DNA of 64,000 nucleotides, taken from NCBI RefSeq assembly GCF_048403405.1, contig NZ_CP183129.1; one strand, written 5' to 3'. The first letter of the stretch is position 1, and the number at the start of each line of letters is the position of its first letter. Positions 1-58,156 of this stretch are shown here, piece by piece. Under the pieces are notes generated by a model that was not told where the DNA came from, made no database searches, and saw only the letters and a program-made list of their open reading frames with translations. A program made the translations under genes and the position numbers. Source of the stretch: Escherichia coli (GTDB lineage: Bacteria > Pseudomonadota > Gammaproteobacteria > Enterobacterales > Enterobacteriaceae).

Positions 1-455
1 CTCAACGTGATACTTTTCAGCATTCCCGTAATTTCACGATGTAAACGCGCTTCAATCGGCAAGATTTTCGGTATTTTTATCGCACCATCAAGGACTTTTA
101 TGCCAACACAATGATAGCTCGATTGTCTGCCGTGTTTACTTTTAAAGGTTGGTTTACCTGCTTTCAGTTTCGGATTGAAAAAGTTAGAAAAAGCCACGTC
201 GAGGTTAATTACCGCCTGCTGCAACGCAATAGAATCATATTCTTTAAGCCATCCATACCGGCGGGATTTCTTCGCCACTGCAAGCAGTGGTTTGAGGTCT
301 TTACGCGGGTTTAAATTTACGCGGTGCCGCTGGTAAGAATGTTTCTTGATATGCAGAGCTTTGTTGTACGCAAAACGCACTGCACCGAACTGGGCGTTGA
401 TAAATTCAGCCTGTTCTGGTGTCGGGTAGATGCGTACTTTTGTTGCTCTTAACAT
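1..455 (-). CDS. tnpB: IS200/IS605-family TnpB (OrfB, RuvC-like RNA-guided nuclease family), N-terminal ~151 codons only; 3' part lies beyond the window start
   Basis: Minus-strand frame open from ATG (revcomp of 453-455) to the window edge with no stop; translation MLRATKVRIYPTPEQAEFINAQFGAVRFAYNKALHIKKHSYQ... resembles the OrfB_IS605 N-terminal domain. Absent from the ORF track because it has no stop inside the window. Confidence 0.7.
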   Translation of the reverse strand, partial: MLRATKVRIYPTPEQAEFINAQFGAVRFAYNKALHIKKHSYQRHRVNLNPRKDLKPLLAVAKKSRRYGWLKEYDSIALQQAVINLDVAFSNFFNPKLKAGKPTFKSKHGRQSSYHCVGIKVLDGAIKIPKILPIEARLHREITGMLKSITL

Positions 456-511
456 AATCAGCGCTCATTGATATAATGCTTTTATTTTAACACTTTAGGT
501 AAATATATCAA

Positions 512-937
512 TTGAGTAATCATGATGATTTACTGGCGGGATTCCTCCGCAAACGACACAGTGTCAGTAAGCTGGTTGTGCACCTTATTTTTACGACAAA
601 GTATCGACGTAAACTATTCGACAGTCAGATGATCGCTCAGTTGCGTGAGGCTTTTGGCTCCGCTGCGGCAAAGCTTGAATGCGAAATTATTGAGATGGAC
701 GGGGAGCCAGACCATGTACACCTGCTGGTTGCCTACCCGCCAAAACTGGCGGTCAGTGTGATGGTCAATAATTTAAAATCGGTATCATCACGTTTGCTAC
801 GCCAGCAGAACGCGCATTTACGTATGCAGAGTAAAACGGGGCTTTTGTGGTCGAGATCGTACTTTGTCTGTAGCACCGGAGAGGCAACGATTGAAACGCT
901 CAGAGCCTACGTTCAGAGTCAGTCAACACCTGATTGA
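512..937 (+). CDS. tnpA: IS200-like Y1 HUH transposase TnpA
   Basis: 141-aa ORF with an HVHLLV (HuH) motif and a C-terminal Tyr region (SRSYFV), size typical of IS200 TnpA; divergent from tnpB. Start at TTG 512 is uncertain. Confidence 0.8.
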   Translation: MSNHDDLLAGFLRKRHSVSKLVVHLIFTTKYRRKLFDSQMIAQLREAFGSAAAKLECEIIEMDGEPDHVHLLVAYPPKLAVSVMVNNLKSVSSRLLRQQNAHLRMQSKTGLLWSRSYFVCSTGEATIETLRAYVQSQSTPD

Positions 938-942
938 TCTTT

Positions 943-959
943 AAAGCCCTGCGGGCTTT
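943..959 (+). repeat. Perfect 7-bp stem / 3-nt loop hairpin (AAAGCCC-TGC-GGGCTTT) just after the tnpA stop; candidate IS subterminal hairpin or tnpA terminator
   Basis: Inverted repeat read directly from the sequence, followed by TTTT. Confidence 0.5.
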
Positions 960-1066
960 TCGCCTTATATCCCCGCCCGCATTGGGCGAGGGTTTACGGC
1001 GTTTTTCGCTAAGCAATGACTACCCTGTTTCGCTTGCATCTCCGGTGAGTTTTGCCACCCTTATAA

Positions 1067-3813
<2,747 letters not shown>

Positions 3814-3836
3814 GGCATGCTCCAGGCCGAAAAAGC

Positions 3837-4493
3837 CTAGCGTAATGGAATGATATCGCCTTGCCAACCCTGTGATGAACGCTGACCGACTAACAATAAT
3901 GAACCACGATCGGCGCGAACGATGAGACGACCATGTTCATCCCATAGTGCACTGTTACCACGGGCATTTGCCATCAGCACGGCAATTGAGTACTGATGTG
4001 AAAAAAATTGTAAGCGGCGGGTAGATGCCAGTAGGTCGGGTTCCCCCAGACATTGCCCTGTCGTAAACAGTGAACAGGTCGGATCCATATCCATACCTTC
4101 CGGTTGTTCATCGACCACCGTGATGGTTCTGGAACGACGGCCCAGACATGCACCATGACTCTGATGGTAGATCCCTGGTGTTTTTCGCCACGGTGCGAAC
4201 ACCGCAATTCCACGAATAAAGCGATCGTTATATTCAACGGGAAGGCCGGCAATGATGGTCATTCGCCAGGTCGTTGCAGCATAACAAAGCGGGTCTAACA
4301 GCGAGAGATCGGGTGGGGCAGGAAGGGCACGTCGCGAATAATCACACCCCAGTAAAGAAAGCGATGGAAAAACTAACAGCTGACATTGTTGCCTGGCGGC
4401 GGCCCTCACAAACTCCAGATGATGAGCTACCTGTTCGGTCAGTGAGGTTTTACGAGGCTCATATTGCGCTGCTGCAACTTTCCAGAACGACAT
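3837..4493 (-). CDS. yobB: C-N hydrolase (nitrilase superfamily) protein
   Basis: 218-aa ORF in the conserved position between holE and exoX. Confidence 0.85.
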   Translation of the reverse strand: MSFWKVAAAQYEPRKTSLTEQVAHHLEFVRAAARQQCQLLVFPSLSLLGCDYSRRALPAPPDLSLLDPLCYAATTWRMTIIAGLPVEYNDRFIRGIAVFAPWRKTPGIYHQSHGACLGRRSRTITVVDEQPEGMDMDPTCSLFTTGQCLGEPDLLASTRRLQFFSHQYSIAVLMANARGNSALWDEHGRLIVRADRGSLLLVGQRSSQGWQGDIIPLR

Positions 4494-6640: not shown

Positions 6641-6726
6641 ACATTTAAGCTGATGACCACCGCGCTTTTTATTGACCATTTTGCACGCAAACTGGAAAAC
6701 CTGGCGTCGTCATCTATTCTTAAAGG

Positions 6727-6829
6727 GCAAGGCATCTAAGCCTGCATTAATGCCAACTTTTAGCGCACGGCTCTCTCCCAAGAGCCATTTCCCTGGACCG
6801 AATACAGGAATCGTGTTCGGTCTCTTTTT
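6727..6829 (+). ncRNA. sdsR: Small RNA SdsR (RyeB), sigma-S-dependent Hfq-binding sRNA
   Basis: Sequence GCAAGGC...TAAGCCTGCATTAATGCCAACTTTTAGCGCACGGCTCTCTCCCAAGAGCCATTTCCCTGGACCGAATACAGGAATCGTGTTCGGTCTCTTTTT recognised as SdsR, ending in a terminator hairpin plus U-run; lies between yebY and pphA as in K-12. Confidence 0.8.
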
Positions 6830-6963
6830 ATCTGTTAAAAGCCAGAAGCATTCCCTTCGCTGACTTTATAGTCAACCATAACACACACTCTACTGTCTGA
6901 GTCCAGCGTTTTTTAACATTCTTGTTAAGATTATGTGATCTTTAGCGCGGGAGGAAAATATTG

Positions 6964-21672: not shown

Positions 21673-22341
21673 TCCTTCCTCAATCTTGAGTAACCCCGTC
21701 GTTGAAGGGTTACTCAATTCATCCTGATTATACGCACTGCCATGGTGCAACTGCTTCAAATTAAAACTCTGGTCTGACTTCAAATAATTATCATATTATT
21801 TATTTGCGTAACGGGATATCAGAAAAAGATATTTAGCCCATTAATTTATTAGGATGTTTACATCGGATTTGTGATTAAGTGTGGTATTATTTATTAGCGA
21901 AACGTTTCTCTCTTGATTTTTTTGCGCATTCATCAATTTTTCTTATTTTAAATTTACAATACCTTTGGCGATTGACTTCTCTTTGGGGTGATCGATAGCC
22001 GTTAACTGACTGTTTTATGAGAAAAAGTGATATAACTTTTTATTCATTGCATAGCAGAAAATGTGATATTGCACGCACTATGTAATAACTTCTCCCACTG
22101 GCCTGGAACAACTGAACTTATTGAACTATGTTAGAAAATACGTCAGTTTAAGTATCTGCCTGAACTGGCAAGGTTAAGCACAATGATATATCGGCGCGTA
22201 TTCCGTTGCATAAGTGTGCAAAAAAAGTGGAAGACGTATCGAGATTTGTGCGTCTGATCGAGACATGTTTAAAAATGGCTTGCCATAATTAACGTTGTAT
22301 GTGATAACAGATTTCGGGTTAAACGAGGTACAGTTCTGTTT

Positions 22342-22485
22342 ATGTGTGGCATTTTCAGTAAAGAAGTCCTGAGTAAACACGTTGACGTTGAATACCGCTT
22401 CTCTGCCGAGCCTTATATTGGTGCCTCATGCAGTAATGTGTCAGTTTTATCTATGTTATGCCTGCGGGCGAAGAAAACAATCTAA
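22342..22485 (+). CDS. yobF: Small protein YobF, co-transcribed with cspC
   Basis: 47-aa [50 protein letters not shown] ending 12 nt upstream of cspC. Confidence 0.85.
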
Positions 22486-22497
22486 GGAATTTTTCAA

Positions 22498-22707
22498 ATG
22501 GCAAAGATTAAAGGTCAGGTTAAGTGGTTCAACGAGTCTAAAGGTTTTGGCTTCATTACTCCGGCTGATGGCAGCAAAGACGTGTTCGTACACTTCTCTG
22601 CTATCCAGGGTAATGGTTTCAAAACTCTGGCTGAAGGTCAGAACGTTGAGTTCGAAATTCAGGACGGTCAGAAAGGTCCGGCAGCTGTTAACGTAACAGC
22701 TATCTGA
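22498..22707 (+). CDS. cspC: Cold-shock-domain protein CspC
   Basis: 69-aa [72 protein letters not shown]; RNP motifs. Confidence 0.97.
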
Positions 22708-22752
22708 TCGAATCCACTGATCTGAAGTGTGAATACGCTTCAATCTCGCTAT

Positions 22753-22780
22753 AAAGCCTCGTCGAATGCGAGGCTTTTTA
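22753..22780 (+). terminator. Rho-independent terminator of yobF-cspC
   Basis: AAGCCTCG-tcgaat-GCGAGGCTT followed by TTTT. Confidence 0.75.
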
Positions 22781-22872
22781 CTTTGCTTTATCTTCGCTCC
22801 AGTCGTTCGGATATTTGCCCGCCGCGTGATTCGCGTTACACTTGCGGCCTTTAGTATCCTGCCGGAGTTGTC

Positions 22873-40186: not shown

Positions 40187-41871
40187 TTGAAGAAGGTTTG
40201 GCTTAACCGTTATCCCGCGGACGTTCCGACGGAGATCAACCCTGACCGTTATCAATCTCTGGTAGATATGTTTGAGCAGTCGGTCGCGCGCTATGCCGAT
40301 CAACCCGCGTTTGTGAATATGGGGGAGGTGATGACCTTCCGCAAACTGGAAGAACGCAGTCGCGCGTTTGCCGCTTATTTGCAACAAGGGTTGGGACTGA
40401 AGAAAGGCGATCGCGTTGCGTTGATGATGCCTAATTTATTGCAATATCCGGTGGCGCTGTTTGGCATTTTGCGTGCCGGGATGATCGTTGTAAACGTTAA
40501 CCCGTTGTATACCCCGCGTGAGCTTGAGCATCAGCTTAACGATAGCGGCGCATCGGCGATTGTTATCGTGTCTAACTTTGCCCACACTCTGGAAAAAGTG
40601 GTTGATAAAACCGCCGTTCAGCACGTAATTCTGACCCGTATGGGCGATCAGCTATCTACGGCAAAAGGCACGGTAGTCAATTTCGTTGTTAAATACATCA
40701 AGCGTCTGGTGCCGAAATACCATCTGCCAGATGCCATTTCATTTCGTAGCGCCCTGCACAACGGCTACCGGATGCAGTACGTCAAACCCGAACTGGTGCC
40801 GGAAGATTTAGCTTTCCTGCAATACACCGGCGGTACCACTGGTGTGGCGAAAGGCGCGATGCTGACTCACCGCAATATGCTGGCGAACCTGGAACAGGTT
40901 AACGCGACCTATGGTCCGCTGTTGCATCCGGGCAAAGAGCTGGTGGTGACGGCGCTGCCGCTGTATCACATTTTTGCCCTGACCATTAACTGCCTGCTGT
41001 TTATCGAACTGGGGGGCAGAACCTGCTTATCACTAATCCGCGCGATATTCCTGGGTTGGTAAAAGAGTTAGCGAAATATCCGTTTACCGCTATCACTGGC
41101 GTTAACACCTTGTTCAATGCGTTGCTGAACAATAAAGAGTTCCAGCAGCTGGATTTCTCCAGTCTGCATCTTTCCGCAGGCGGAGGGATGCCTGTTCAGC
41201 AAGTGGTGGCAGAACGTTGGGTGAAACTGACTGGACAGTATCTGCTGGAAGGTTATGGCCTGACCGAGTGTGCGCCGCTGGTCAGCGTTAACCCGTATGA
41301 TATTGATTATCATAGCGGTAGCATCGGTTTGCCGGTGCCATCGACGGAAGCCAAACTGGTGGATGACGACGACAACGAAGTACCACCGGGTCAACCGGGT
41401 GAGCTTTGTGTCAAAGGGCCGCAGGTGATGCTGGGTTACTGGCAGCGTCCGGATGCTACCGATGAAATCATCAAAAATGGCTGGTTACACACCGGCGACA
41501 TCGCGGTGATGGATGAAGAAGGATTCCTGCGTATTGTCGATCGCAAAAAAGACATGATTCTGGTTTCCGGTTTTAACGTCTATCCCAACGAGATTGAAGA
41601 TGTCGTCATGCAGCATCCTGGCGTACAGGAAGTCGCGGCTGTTGGCGTACCTTCCGGCTCCAGTGGTGAAGCGGTGAAAATCTTCGTAGTGAAAAAAGAT
41701 CCATCGCTTACCGAAGAGTCACTGGTGACTTTTTGCCGCCGTCAGCTCACGGGCTACAAAGTACCGAAGTTGGTGGAGTTTCGTGATGAGTTACCGAAAT
41801 CTAACGTCGGAAAAATTTTGCGACGAGAATTACGTGACGAAGCGCGCGGCAAAGTGGACAATAAAGCCTGA
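40187..41871 (+). pseudogene. fadD: Long-chain acyl-CoA synthetase FadD, interrupted by a -1 frameshift in a G6 run at 41011-41016 (premature stop at 41060-41062)
   Basis: Two ORFs (40121-41062 and 41056-41871) in different frames each encode a contiguous part of FadD (...[13 protein letters not shown] | [22 protein letters not shown]...); restoring one G rejoins them. TTG start at 40187. Confidence 0.85.
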
Positions 41872-41917
41872 GCGTTAAGTCAGTCGTCAGACGCCGGTTA
41901 ATCCGGCGTTTTTTTTG
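41830..41917 (+). ncRNA. sroD: sRNA SroD, derived from the fadD 3' end; boundaries approximate
   Basis: Established sRNA annotated at the fadD 3' end / fadD-rnd intergenic region in K-12, ending at the fadD terminator; placement from recalled annotation. Confidence 0.35.
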
Positions 41918-45298: not shown

Positions 45299-46909
45299 TC
45301 AGTTGTCGCCTTTGAATACGGTTCCCGCAGGGAGCACTGGCGTTTTTTCCGGGGCTTCAACCGGTGTCTGCGGGAGATAATGTTCAACTTGATGAGCCGG
45401 AATGTCGGCGTAATCCTGTTTCAGCCAGCGAATAAAGCCACCGACTTTCACCAGTAAAATAACGAGGAAGGGCAGGGCTGTAAGTACCACAGTGGTTTTC
45501 ATGGTTTCCAGCGACGCGCCAGTAAATAAGATAGACAGTGGAATCAGGGTGATAACCACGCACCAGAACAGGCGAAGAGCACGGTCAGGGTCGTCACCTT
45601 CCTTAAGATTTCGCGTACTGGTCGCCGCCATGGTGTAGGCCACCGCATCCATATGCGAGGCAAGGAAAATAATCATCACGCCCAGGTATGCGGCGAGGAA
45701 CAATTTACCGGCTGGCAACGACATCAGAACTTGCTGCACAGCTGTCTCGCCGCCCAGTGTTTCCAGCACCTGTGGGACGTTGATTACGCCATTGATAAAC
45801 TGGTGAATGGCATAGCTTTCCATTACGCCGAAGAAGAACCAGCAACCGACGGTGCTGCCGAGGATCAGTCCCCAGATAACTTCTTTAATCTTACGACCGC
45901 GTGAAACGCGTGTGACAAACATTGCTACGCCAGGGGTGTATGAAATCCACCACAGCCAGTAGAAAACGGTCCAGTTGCGGGGAAATGAACCATCGCCAAG
46001 CGGATCGGTGAATAAGCTCATTTGCAGGAAGTTTTGCGTGGTCAGGCCGATGGCATTGATGATGCTGTTGGTAATAAATTCGGTTGGACCGACAATCAGC
46101 ACCAGTAATGGCAGCAGGAACGCGCCCCAGCCAACCATTTTGCTCAGACGTTGCAAACCGTTGTTGATACCAATCCACGAGCTTAGGCAAAAAATGCCGC
46201 CGGAAAGCAGGATCACAAATGCCTGCACGGTGAAGTTATCGGGTAAACCGGTCAGCGCGGAAAGCCCACGAGTAAAGGTTGCTGCGGTAACAACAAGGGA
46301 AATGGTCAGCGCACCGACAGTGGCGATCAGGAACATCAAATCGACCAGTTTTCCCCACGGGCCTTGCGGGCGAACGCCGGTAATCGCGGCAATAATGCCG
46401 GAAAGGCTCAGACCTTTGTTTTTCCGCACATGAAAGTGATAAGCCATGATTAATGAGGCCAGCGTATAAGTTGCCCAGGCGCTGATGCCCCAGTGGAAGA
46501 AGGAGTAAGGGACGCTAAATTCGAGTGCCTGTTGTGAACGCGGTGCGATATTTAATCCAGGTGTTTGATAATAATAGGCCCATTCAGCACCCCCCCAATA
46601 AAGCGTAGAAGAACCTAAACCGGCACAAATAAACATAAACAGCCAGGAGAGCGTGCTGTATTCCGGTTTTCCTTCTCCAAGACGAATATTGCCGTATTTA
46701 CTGGTGGCTAAATAAATCACCAGTCCCATTGCCAGCAAAACCAATACCTGTACGGCGGAACCTAACGTACGCGTAACAAAAGTGTATATTGCGTTGGCCG
46801 CGTCGGCCGATTGTTGTGGGAAAAGGCTTAATGCAGCTGCGATGAAAAGAATGGCCACCAGGCTGATGCTTATCAGCGGCACATCTTTTTTCTTAACATT
46901 GCTCATCAT
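45299..46909 (-). CDS. yeaV: BCCT-family transporter YeaV (start codon uncertain)
   Basis: Long polytopic ORF with BCCT-family features, upstream of yeaW-yeaX. Confidence 0.85.
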
Positions 46910-47116
46910 GAGTCATCTCCTGGGCATAAAAGCCCGTCTCTGGCTTTTGCCAGTTGTAATTATTTGCAGGGTAATGAGTTGCATGTTGTGTTTAACAAAT
47001 TGATTATTTACATGTTACATAAATTAAACAATTAAGAATACGGAAAGCCATAAAACACGAAACGGAAACAATAAAAGGTGAAATGACGCAGGTTATTAAC
47101 TGCAAAGAACGAATAA

Positions 47117-56625: not shown

Positions 56626-57976
56626 TCATGAACGGCTGTTTTTGTTCTGCTTATTGACATATAAACGCTCATCGGAAGCTTTATACGCATCATGTAACGT
56701 ATCGTTTTCTTTCATCGCGTAAATACCGGAAGAGAAGCCGATCTCTTTCTGCGGCGCGATATGTTGCAGACGTTTTTCGATACGTTCAGGCAGTTGTGCT
56801 GCAATTTGCGGCGTCGAATCGACTAGAATGATGCAGAATTCATCGCCACCGAGTCGGATGGCATAATCACTTTTACGAATCGACTGTTTAATCGCCTGAG
56901 CTAATAACGTAATCGCTAAATCCCCCTCCTGATGACCGAGGGTGTCATTTATTTGCTTTAACTTGTCCATGTCAATTGCAATAAACATCACCGAAGAACC
57001 GGATTGCACCAGTTTTTGCAACCGCTGCTCCAGTTCAGGGGTTAAAATTTTGCGATTATACAGTCCTGTCATCGCATCACTAATATTTTCTCGCGACACA
57101 TTTTGGTATAAACGGAAGTGCATCCGCACCATATTCAGCAAAATTAACGCCGTCAAAATCCAGAACAGAACGCTTTTCCACGAAGACGTGATAAAGTAAA
57201 GAATATCAATGGATAACGAGACACGAATGCCGCCCGGTAAGTCATGGACGTAACTGACATACTGGAACAGATTATCTTCGCTCTGGTTGATGATAATGTC
57301 GCGCCCCGAATCGGTATCGGTTAGCGTGACATTGAGAAAACGCCAGAGGAGAGGGCGGTCATGAGTGTAAAAGATATTCCGCAGATTGTTTTTGTTAATA
57401 TCCAGCAGCACAATCCCTTTTAGCTGCCCTGCGACATATACCGGCGTCAGCAAACTCATCACGTTCTGTTTAGTACGCTGATCCTGGTAAATGCTCGATA
57501 AAACGGTACGCCCGGTAAATACCTTTTCAATATCTTTGCGATCGATGCCAATACTTCCTGACTGCAGGAAAGACCAGTTATTCATCGCAAAGTACTCAAC
57601 ATTAACCGGCTCATAAAAATAGACATAGCGGTCATTGAGATCGAGATAATAGTGAAATTTCTCGTCGGCCATCCCAAGACCTGAACCGTAATCATCCTGG
57701 TGGCGGTTGCCTTCCACTGCCTGATCAAAAGCGGGTAATAGTGCTGCAGCTTCCACAATTGTGTCGCAGTCAGTGGATGCGGTTTGTAGTGTGCCGCGTA
57801 AGCCAGGGTATTTATGGGCAGTCAGGTTTAAGCCATGGGTATTATTTGCAGACTCAAAAGCCTCGCAGATGGTGCGCCGCTGTTCTGGCGACAAGTTCAA
57901 AAATAAGGAAGGAAGATGTCAGCACAATGACACTTGCGGCGATAAAATGCCGGAGCATTCTATGGTGCAATTTCAT
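56626..57976 (-). pseudogene. dgcJ: Diguanylate cyclase DgcJ (YeaJ), disrupted: the N-terminal 30 codons are out of frame with the body, consistent with a ~140-bp internal deletion
   Basis: ATG at 57976 has a strong AAGGAG ribosome-binding site and encodes MKLHHRMLRHFIAASVIVLTSSFLIFELVA, then 11 out-of-frame codons and a stop at 57854. The GGDEF body (SPEQRR...RLGGDEF...) is in another frame with only an internal TTG at 57900. Confidence 0.65.
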
Positions 57977-58156
57977 GATAAATGGCACTCCTTCGGTTAG
58001 TGAAACGAGAAAACCAGATAAAGTTCGATTGCGGCCTGGCACAGGGGCGCTAATTATACTCATCTCTGCGCCGCTGGGGAGGGGAAATTTAGGGGTAATA
58101 GTAATAAATTGTATGCAAAAGCCACGCAAAAAGCATGGCTCTGAATATTTTTGCAC

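Follow-up and report, generated by a model that had tools for sequence, protein, structure and literature searches.

Gene content and extent of the element upstream of ptrB

The stretch of DNA analyzed here (the window; 64,000 nt from Escherichia coli, contig NZ_CP183129.1) opens within an IS200/IS605-family element of 1763 bp, of which positions 1–1008 are the tnpA-side 1008 bp. This part contains two divergent genes, the 5′ part of tnpB (minus strand, 455..3) and a complete tnpA (plus strand, 512–937), and lies upstream of ptrB. The other 755 bp, with tnpB codons 152–389, the predicted ωRNA region and the right end, are situated upstream of window base 1. The initial annotation had already proposed, from the letters alone, an IS200/IS605-family element with a TnpB gene at this place and the divergent arrangement of tnpB and tnpA, and both are borne out by the profile matches described below and by the RefSeq annotation. 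A megablast search of 5426 complete E. coli genomes showed that window 1–1093 is 99.9% identical to loci annotated as ISEc46 transposase plus TnpB, with the product names "IS200/IS605-like element ISEc46 family transposase" and "RNA-guided endonuclease InsQ/TnpB family protein". We designate the element ISEc46 on the basis of the RefSeq/PGAP product name at these 99.9%-identical loci.

For the part of the element beyond the window we used as a proxy the genome of TUM14771 (locus L001, in NZ_CP128875.1), in which 2 of the 6093 bases compared are different from those of the window. This genome is much closer than strain N3 (locus L004), which is 100% identical over window 759–1258 yet differs at 31 of 4258 bases. 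The gene order in TUM14771 is yebE, tnpB (minus strand, 389 aa), tnpA (plus strand) and ptrB, and the full ISEc46 copy (L001 4246–6008) is exactly 1763 bp. The same length, from the start of the right end (RE) to the end of the left end (LE), was found in N3, in locus L003 and in a Photorhabdus contig (L026) comprising the element and CTAA, making four loci with that of TUM14771.

In E. coli K-12 MG1655, yebE and ptrB are adjacent, with no element between them, as the initial annotation had expected. The empty K-12 site reads ...cattacctgtcatcat/ctaagcaatgac... (slashes mark junctions), and the occupied site reads ...catcat/GTGACTGCTCCCC ... GGCGTTTTTCG/ctaagcaatgac; comparison of the two shows neither a target duplication nor terminal inverted repeats. 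This alignment places the window-side boundary of the element at 1008/1009, 85 bp upstream of the ptrB ATG (1094). The extent of 1–1000 originally given for the element was thus right as to its presence and short as to its end, which is at 1008. Independent support for this boundary comes from the empty-site genomes, which match a query spanning the junction (window 759–1258) only from its base 251, that is, window 1009. At the other side, the expected right end of an intact copy is ...CCTCGCCCGACAGGGCGGGGAGCAGTCAC, followed by the yebE-side flank ATGATGACAGG, so that the predicted donor joint after excision would be GCTTAG/ATGATGACAGG.

The insertion leaves 85 bp of native sequence (1009–1093) before the start of ptrB, and tnpA and ptrB point the same way. 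Transcription of ptrB may be altered, either because its promoter is displaced or by read-through from tnpA.

tnpA and the region between the divergent genes

Gene tnpA (512–937, plus strand) is intact and, from a TTG start, codes for a 141-aa product, a Y1 HUH single-strand DNA transposase as judged from its open reading frame, profile matches and PDB relatives. The protein scores 141.8 bits against the NCBIfam profile NF033573, "IS200/IS605 family transposase" (cut-off 55; E 1.2e-41), and its structural relatives are 2ec2, 2f4f, 2a6m (IS608) and 2vhg, with E values from 1e-22 to 5e-19. The HUH motif is H68-V-H70, and Tyr133 lies within RAYVQSQ. Profile, structures and motifs thus agree on the type of transposase that characterizes the IS200/IS605 family. 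The deduced product is identical to WP_000064873.1.

The two divergent genes are separated by a spacer of 56 bp. Two promoter-like sites are found in and around it, by pattern only: TTAACA-17-TATAAT (449..477, plus strand), facing tnpA, with 11 of 12 consensus matches, and TTGATA-16-TAAAAT (484..511, minus strand), facing tnpB, with 10 of 12. The scan with the promoter consensus yielded 2 sites, with 1.3 expected. Just 3′ of the tnpA stop codon there is a perfect 7-bp hairpin, AAAGCCC-TGC-GGGCTTT (943..959), which appears in the predicted DNA folds of either strand and is kept in most full-length relatives; it may serve as a tnpA terminator, as additional secondary structure of the left end, or as both. 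A terminator scan of positions 300–1150 identified no canonical intrinsic terminator, the T-run of the 943–959 hairpin being too short.

tnpB and its deduced product

The tnpB frame starts MLRATKVRIYPTPEQAEF (ATG at 455–453, minus strand) and runs without stops through 151 whole codons (455..3) until it leaves the window at the left edge. The fragment matches NCBIfam profile IS200_TnpB (NF038281) with an E value of 7.7e-34 over profile positions 2–149 of 360, and guided_TnpB (NF040570) with an E value of 1.3e-25; the view that only the N-terminus of TnpB is present in the window is therefore confirmed by both its length and the part of the profile that it covers. These residues are identical to residues 1–151 of the 389-aa WP_000942662.1, the TnpB of TUM14771.

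The full-length TnpB from TUM14771 scores 342 bits against NF040570, "RNA-guided endonuclease TnpB family" (cut-off 100), and contains the Pfam domains HTH_OrfB_IS605 (residues 1–44), OrfB_IS605 (PF01385) and Cas12f1-like TNB (PF07282). It aligns with the TnpB from ISDra2 (8bf8, 8exa, 8h1j) over 371 residues with 39% identity (E 3.6e-74). In this alignment D191, E278 and D361 from ISDra2 correspond to D185, E269 and D351 of the RuvC domain, and its four zinc-finger cysteines to C322, C325, C341 and C344. Since a frameshift or the loss of RuvC residues would make the element a decayed one, as the initial annotation had pointed out, it is relevant that the tnpB of this nearest genome is unshifted and has lost neither the D-E-D triad of RuvC nor any zinc-finger cysteine, with no decay there. 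Triad and zinc finger are read in the TUM14771 copy, as residues 1–151, those encoded in the window, precede all of them; the window tnpB is thus presumed intact beyond codon 151 from its close identity to the TUM14771 gene. The TnpB proteins of strains N3 and YZ22PE244 each carry one residue change, neither of them catalytic.

Subterminal hairpins, putative guide tetranucleotides and target

The left end contains an imperfect palindrome (IPL) on the minus strand, CCTCGCCC-AATGC-GGGCGGGG (971..991), with one T·G pair or bulged T. The right end of the TUM14771 copy contains nearly the same hairpin, CCTCGCCC-GACA-GGGCGGGG (L001 4255–4274), on the same strand. The element thus has similar subterminal palindromes at both ends on one strand and lacks terminal inverted repeats, as is characteristic of the IS200/IS605 family. 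On the tnpB strand, the left end reads 5′-TTAG/CGAAAAACGCCGTAAAC-CCTCGCCC AATGC GGGCGGGG..., and the far end ...GAAG-CCTCGCCC GACA GGGCGGGG-AGCAGTCAC/flank. Because the ends have the layout of those from IS608, the minus strand of the window corresponds to the "top" strand and the end contained in the window to the left end, with tnpB pointing to the right end, as it does in further elements that carry it.

In IS608 the distance from hairpin to cleavage site is 19 nt at the left end and 10 nt at the right end (PMC3201880), and the cleavage/guide pairs are TTAC/AAAG (CL/GL) and TCAA/GAAT (PMC5934647). The corresponding distances in ISEc46 are 17 and 9 nt. Following the IS608 rule, the putative left guide tetranucleotide (GL) is AAAC (992..995, minus strand), directly 5′ of the foot of the IPL, and by sequence comparison the pairs of ISEc46 are TTAG/AAAC (CL/GL) and TCAC/GAAG (CR/GR). 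With respect to IS608, the fourth position of the tetranucleotides changes in a compensating manner at both ends, and the putative guide and cleavage tetranucleotides of ISEc46 follow the IS608 rule.

The tetranucleotide immediately outside the element is CTAA on the plus strand (1009..1012), that is, 5′-TTAG on the tnpB strand (CL, and the predicted TAM). CTAA occurs once in the K-12 empty site; it was, therefore, already there as the target before insertion, and the element does not include it. We scanned for the terminal 21-mer in one genome per species from 100,044 species, which yielded 23 loci in Pluralibacter, Phaseolibacter, Xenorhabdus, Proteus, Photorhabdus and Klebsiella. Including those from E. 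coli, CTAA was found outside the left end at 26 of 27 loci, and CTAG at the remaining one; after removal of duplicates, it was present at 23 of 24 independent sites from about ten Enterobacterales species, with unrelated sequences beyond it. The target on the tnpB strand is therefore 5′-TTAG, next to which the element inserts, on its 3′ side, with no target-site duplication, as do the members of the IS200/IS605 family. We infer that TTAG would also be the TAM, from this target of TnpA and the rule described for the family (PMC10055086).

The scan also revealed short derivatives of the element. Two 47-bp mini-elements from Phaseolibacter flectens (L006 7457–7503 and L007 3370–3416) have the right terminus of ISEc46 (9 nt) and its left terminus (17 nt) with one hairpin between them, and each is followed by CTAAG. 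Left-end derivatives that are short or degenerate are also present in Xenorhabdus, Proteus mirabilis and Photorhabdus (L008/L009, L019–L022 and L024).

The predicted ωRNA and its guide

We aligned the 3′ end of tnpB plus the right end with those of relatives from plasmids of Enterobacter, Serratia and E. coli, with 78–99% overall identity. Identity was 93–98% in all five relatives over the last 60 nt (positions 1151–1210 of that comparison), 92–98% in four of the five over the preceding interval (positions 1101–1160), and 67–88% in the body of the gene. Similarity among the relatives stops abruptly at ...GCAGTCAC/. The conservation of the 3′ end fits a dual constraint, as the right end acted upon by TnpA and as a putative ωRNA scaffold.

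RNAalifold produced a stable consensus fold for seven close relatives, in which none of the 44 pairs was compensatory, the relatives being too similar in this region. A search of the full element at a permissive E value matched no Rfam family, and no curated ωRNA model applies. An ωRNA located at the 3′ end of tnpB and the right end, beyond the window, would fit the anatomy of the element, judging from what is known of the family and from the conservation of the 3′ end. If the family rule holds (PMC10055086), the guide of this predicted ωRNA would be the yebE-side flank, ATGATGACAGGTAATGGCGC, with TTAG as the TAM. The K-12-type empty site corresponds exactly to TTAG and then ATGATGACAGGTAATGGCGC and, because it combines the predicted TAM with the predicted guide sequence, it would be the homing target.

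Distribution in E. coli and on plasmids

Taking as carriers those genomes with at least 80% coverage of the junction query, 400 of the 5426 complete E. coli genomes (about 7%) contain ISEc46 at exactly the same IS–ptrB junction, and in nearly all the remaining genomes the match is limited to the ptrB half of the query. The insertion is, therefore, a polymorphism of E. coli lineages and not a novelty of this strain: of the two points raised beforehand, the reference strain K-12 does lack the element, but the insertion is not strain-specific. With window 1–1093 as the query, a near-complete match was found in 447 genomes, with 45 places on plasmids, so that some copies must be elsewhere; the number of places per matching genome had a median of 1 and a maximum of 5. 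Copies at other sites include one inside a pseudogene for an IclR-family regulator adjoining yfaU (L003), and others on plasmids. Copies at other chromosomal and plasmid sites are more than 99% identical, indicating that the family has moved recently.

Across window 1–4258, the copy from N3 shows 31 differences, 27 of them outside the element and four inside. The same insertion on the distinct ptrB haplotype of N3 suggests either that it is old or that it was transferred by recombination of the flanking sequences.

Relatives of ISEc46 with 81–99% identity that retain the right end and tnpB, with no tnpA, are common on P1-like phage-plasmids. Three examples are E. coli plasmids with P1-like genes (L033, L034 and L035; lytic replication protein, Icd-like, Dam and antirepressor), two of which, L034 and L035, were typed as IncY. 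Some match to the element is present in 905 plasmid records overall, of which only six contain most of it.

The rest of the window

The remainder of the window (1009–63999) is collinear with K-12 coordinates 1928924–1866018, with about 98% identity, except for two indels of 224 and 140 bp. Relative to K-12, the ISEc46 fragment thus remains the only clearly accessory DNA of the stretch, as originally noted.

The first indel is a 224-bp sequence (46782–47005) that is absent from K-12 and gives the 5′ end of yeaV; the yeaV ORF (45299–46909, minus strand) has 536 aa, compared to the 481 aa annotated in K-12, and the difference looks like a deletion in K-12 rather than an insertion in the window. 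The second is in dgcJ/yeaJ (minus strand), where 140 bp from K-12 (1872124–1872263) are missing at 57885–57893, between 9-bp direct repeats (CTGGCGACA). This loss shifts the frame and leaves two ORFs of 424 and 100 aa (56626–57900 and 57854–58156), and thus the diguanylate cyclase gene dgcJ is probably a pseudogene in this strain. Rfam matches above the gathering threshold corresponded to expected core RNAs, with nothing unusual among them: SraC/RyeA with SdsR/RyeB on the opposite strand, a cspA-type thermoregulator in the cspC region, and sroD (6689–6833, 22322–22782 and 41830–41915).

Proposed mode of mobility and alternative explanations

At its left edge the window contains one end of an insertion sequence that is already known and catalogued, and which has every feature of the IS200/IS605 family that can be examined in a sequence and does not depart from the family. 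Window 1–1008 is very probably the left-end half of a structurally intact ISEc46 copy, situated in the yebE–ptrB intergenic region, that would move as do IS608, ISDra2 and ISGst. Its transposition, ωRNA, TAM and homing function are proposed here from knowledge of this family.

By analogy with IS608, ISDra2 and ISGst, ISEc46 would move by single-strand "peel and paste". A TnpA dimer, with the HUH motif and Tyr133 as its catalytic residues, would bind both subterminal hairpins on the tnpB-sense strand, and its cleavage sites would be located by DNA–DNA pairing of GL AAAC with the flanking TTAG, and of GR GAAG with the TCAC of the right terminus. A single-stranded circle would then be excised, the donor resealed without a scar, and the circle reinserted 3′ of another TTAG. 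In turn, TnpB (389 aa, with D185/E269/D351) would bind an ωRNA to which the 3′ end of tnpB and the right end give rise, with a guide supplied by the yebE-side flank (predicted, ATGATGACAGGTAATGGCGC). Once this complex had cut the empty site left after resealing (TTAG and the guide sequence), recombination with the sister copy would restore the element, according to the homing model for TnpB of Meers et al. (PMC10055086).

The current activity of ISEc46 may be very low, as most carriers have a single copy. An explanation that we consider doubtful, although it survives better than the others, is that the copy has become a fixed relic that, despite intact-looking genes, no longer transposes or homes and is vertically inherited in a lineage of E. 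coli. It would agree with the 400 genomes that share the same junction, with a median of one place per genome, and with the presence of the element at the same site in N3, where ptrB is about 1.3% divergent and the element 0.4%. However, both ORFs, all the catalytic residues, the hairpins and the guide and cleavage tetranucleotides are intact, and the near-identical copies at other chromosomal and plasmid sites speak for recent movement of the family, both of which argue against a relic.

It is far less probable that TnpB is a domesticated derivative, nuclease-dead or regulatory, such as a TldR-like RNA-guided repressor. Exaptations of TnpB of this kind are documented in enterobacteria (PMC10705468), and the relatives with tnpB and no tnpA on IncY/P1-like plasmids would also agree with this explanation. 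Here, however, tnpB accompanies an intact tnpA between IS ends that are likewise intact, and TnpB, as read in the TUM14771 copy, has its full length (389 aa, against 408 aa in ISDra2), retains the D-E-D triad of RuvC as well as the zinc finger, and scores 342 bits on NF040570, well over the cut-off of 100; we thus reject a domesticated or dead TnpB on account of the intact tnpA partner, ends, triad and zinc finger. Finally, that there is no real element, the matches coming from chance ORFs or from an assembly error at the edge, is ruled out by the E values of 1e-41 for TnpA and 8e-34 for the TnpB fragment, and by the occurrence of the same arrangement in hundreds of independent complete assemblies.

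The reading that we favor is, therefore, that of a structurally intact member of the family. Within it, we give equal weight for and against a more specific proposal, namely that TnpB-ωRNA is an active homing nuclease with a TTAG TAM that keeps the element at yebE–ptrB and, in its tnpB-only form, on P1-like phage-plasmids, and that the ends of the element spawned the 47-bp mini-elements in other Enterobacterales. Even if this were true, the known picture of the family would not change. The ISEc46 insertion marks a polymorphism of E. coli lineages, with little importance beyond its correct annotation. The present analysis adds the base-exact boundary, the TTAG target (and predicted TAM), the guide and cleavage tetranucleotides and the guide of the predicted ωRNA; the boundary, the target and the guide predictions provide a basis for testing the TnpB of ISEc46 as a native RNA-guided nuclease from E. 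coli.

Comparison with known systems

ISEc46 is reported routinely by mobile-element typing, mostly in surveys of E. coli genomes, and we found no biochemistry on it in the literature searched; a preprint on IS gene drives in plasmids (10.1101/2025.02.20.638934) makes no mention of ISEc46, IS609 or TTAG. Between the window element and the loci that RefSeq annotates as ISEc46 there is no detectable difference.

The resemblance to IS608/IS605, from Helicobacter pylori, includes the Y1 HUH TnpA (E 5e-19 to 2a6m), the subterminal hairpins on one strand, the insertion 3′ of a tetranucleotide with no duplication, and a matching guide/cleavage logic. In IS605, tnpA and tnpB are divergent, as they are in ISEc46. 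The relationship to IS608 is distant, as reflected by that same E value, and the two differ in the target, TTAC in IS608 and TTAG in ISEc46, and in the hairpin-to-cleavage distances (19/10 vs. 17/9 nt).

The TnpB from ISDra2, of Deinococcus radiodurans, shares with that of ISEc46 the domain order, the RuvC D-E-D triad and the CxxC...CxxC zinc finger. The TAM of ISDra2 is TTGAT, and ISEc46 differs in its predicted TAM, TTAG, in that its ωRNA is a predicted one, and in the divergent orientation of tnpA with respect to tnpB. For the TnpB and IscB proteins from ISGst of Geobacillus, scarless excision leaves a donor joint, formed by the TAM and the right-end flank, that is matched by the ωRNA guide (PMC10055086), and by analogy we propose the same life cycle for ISEc46.
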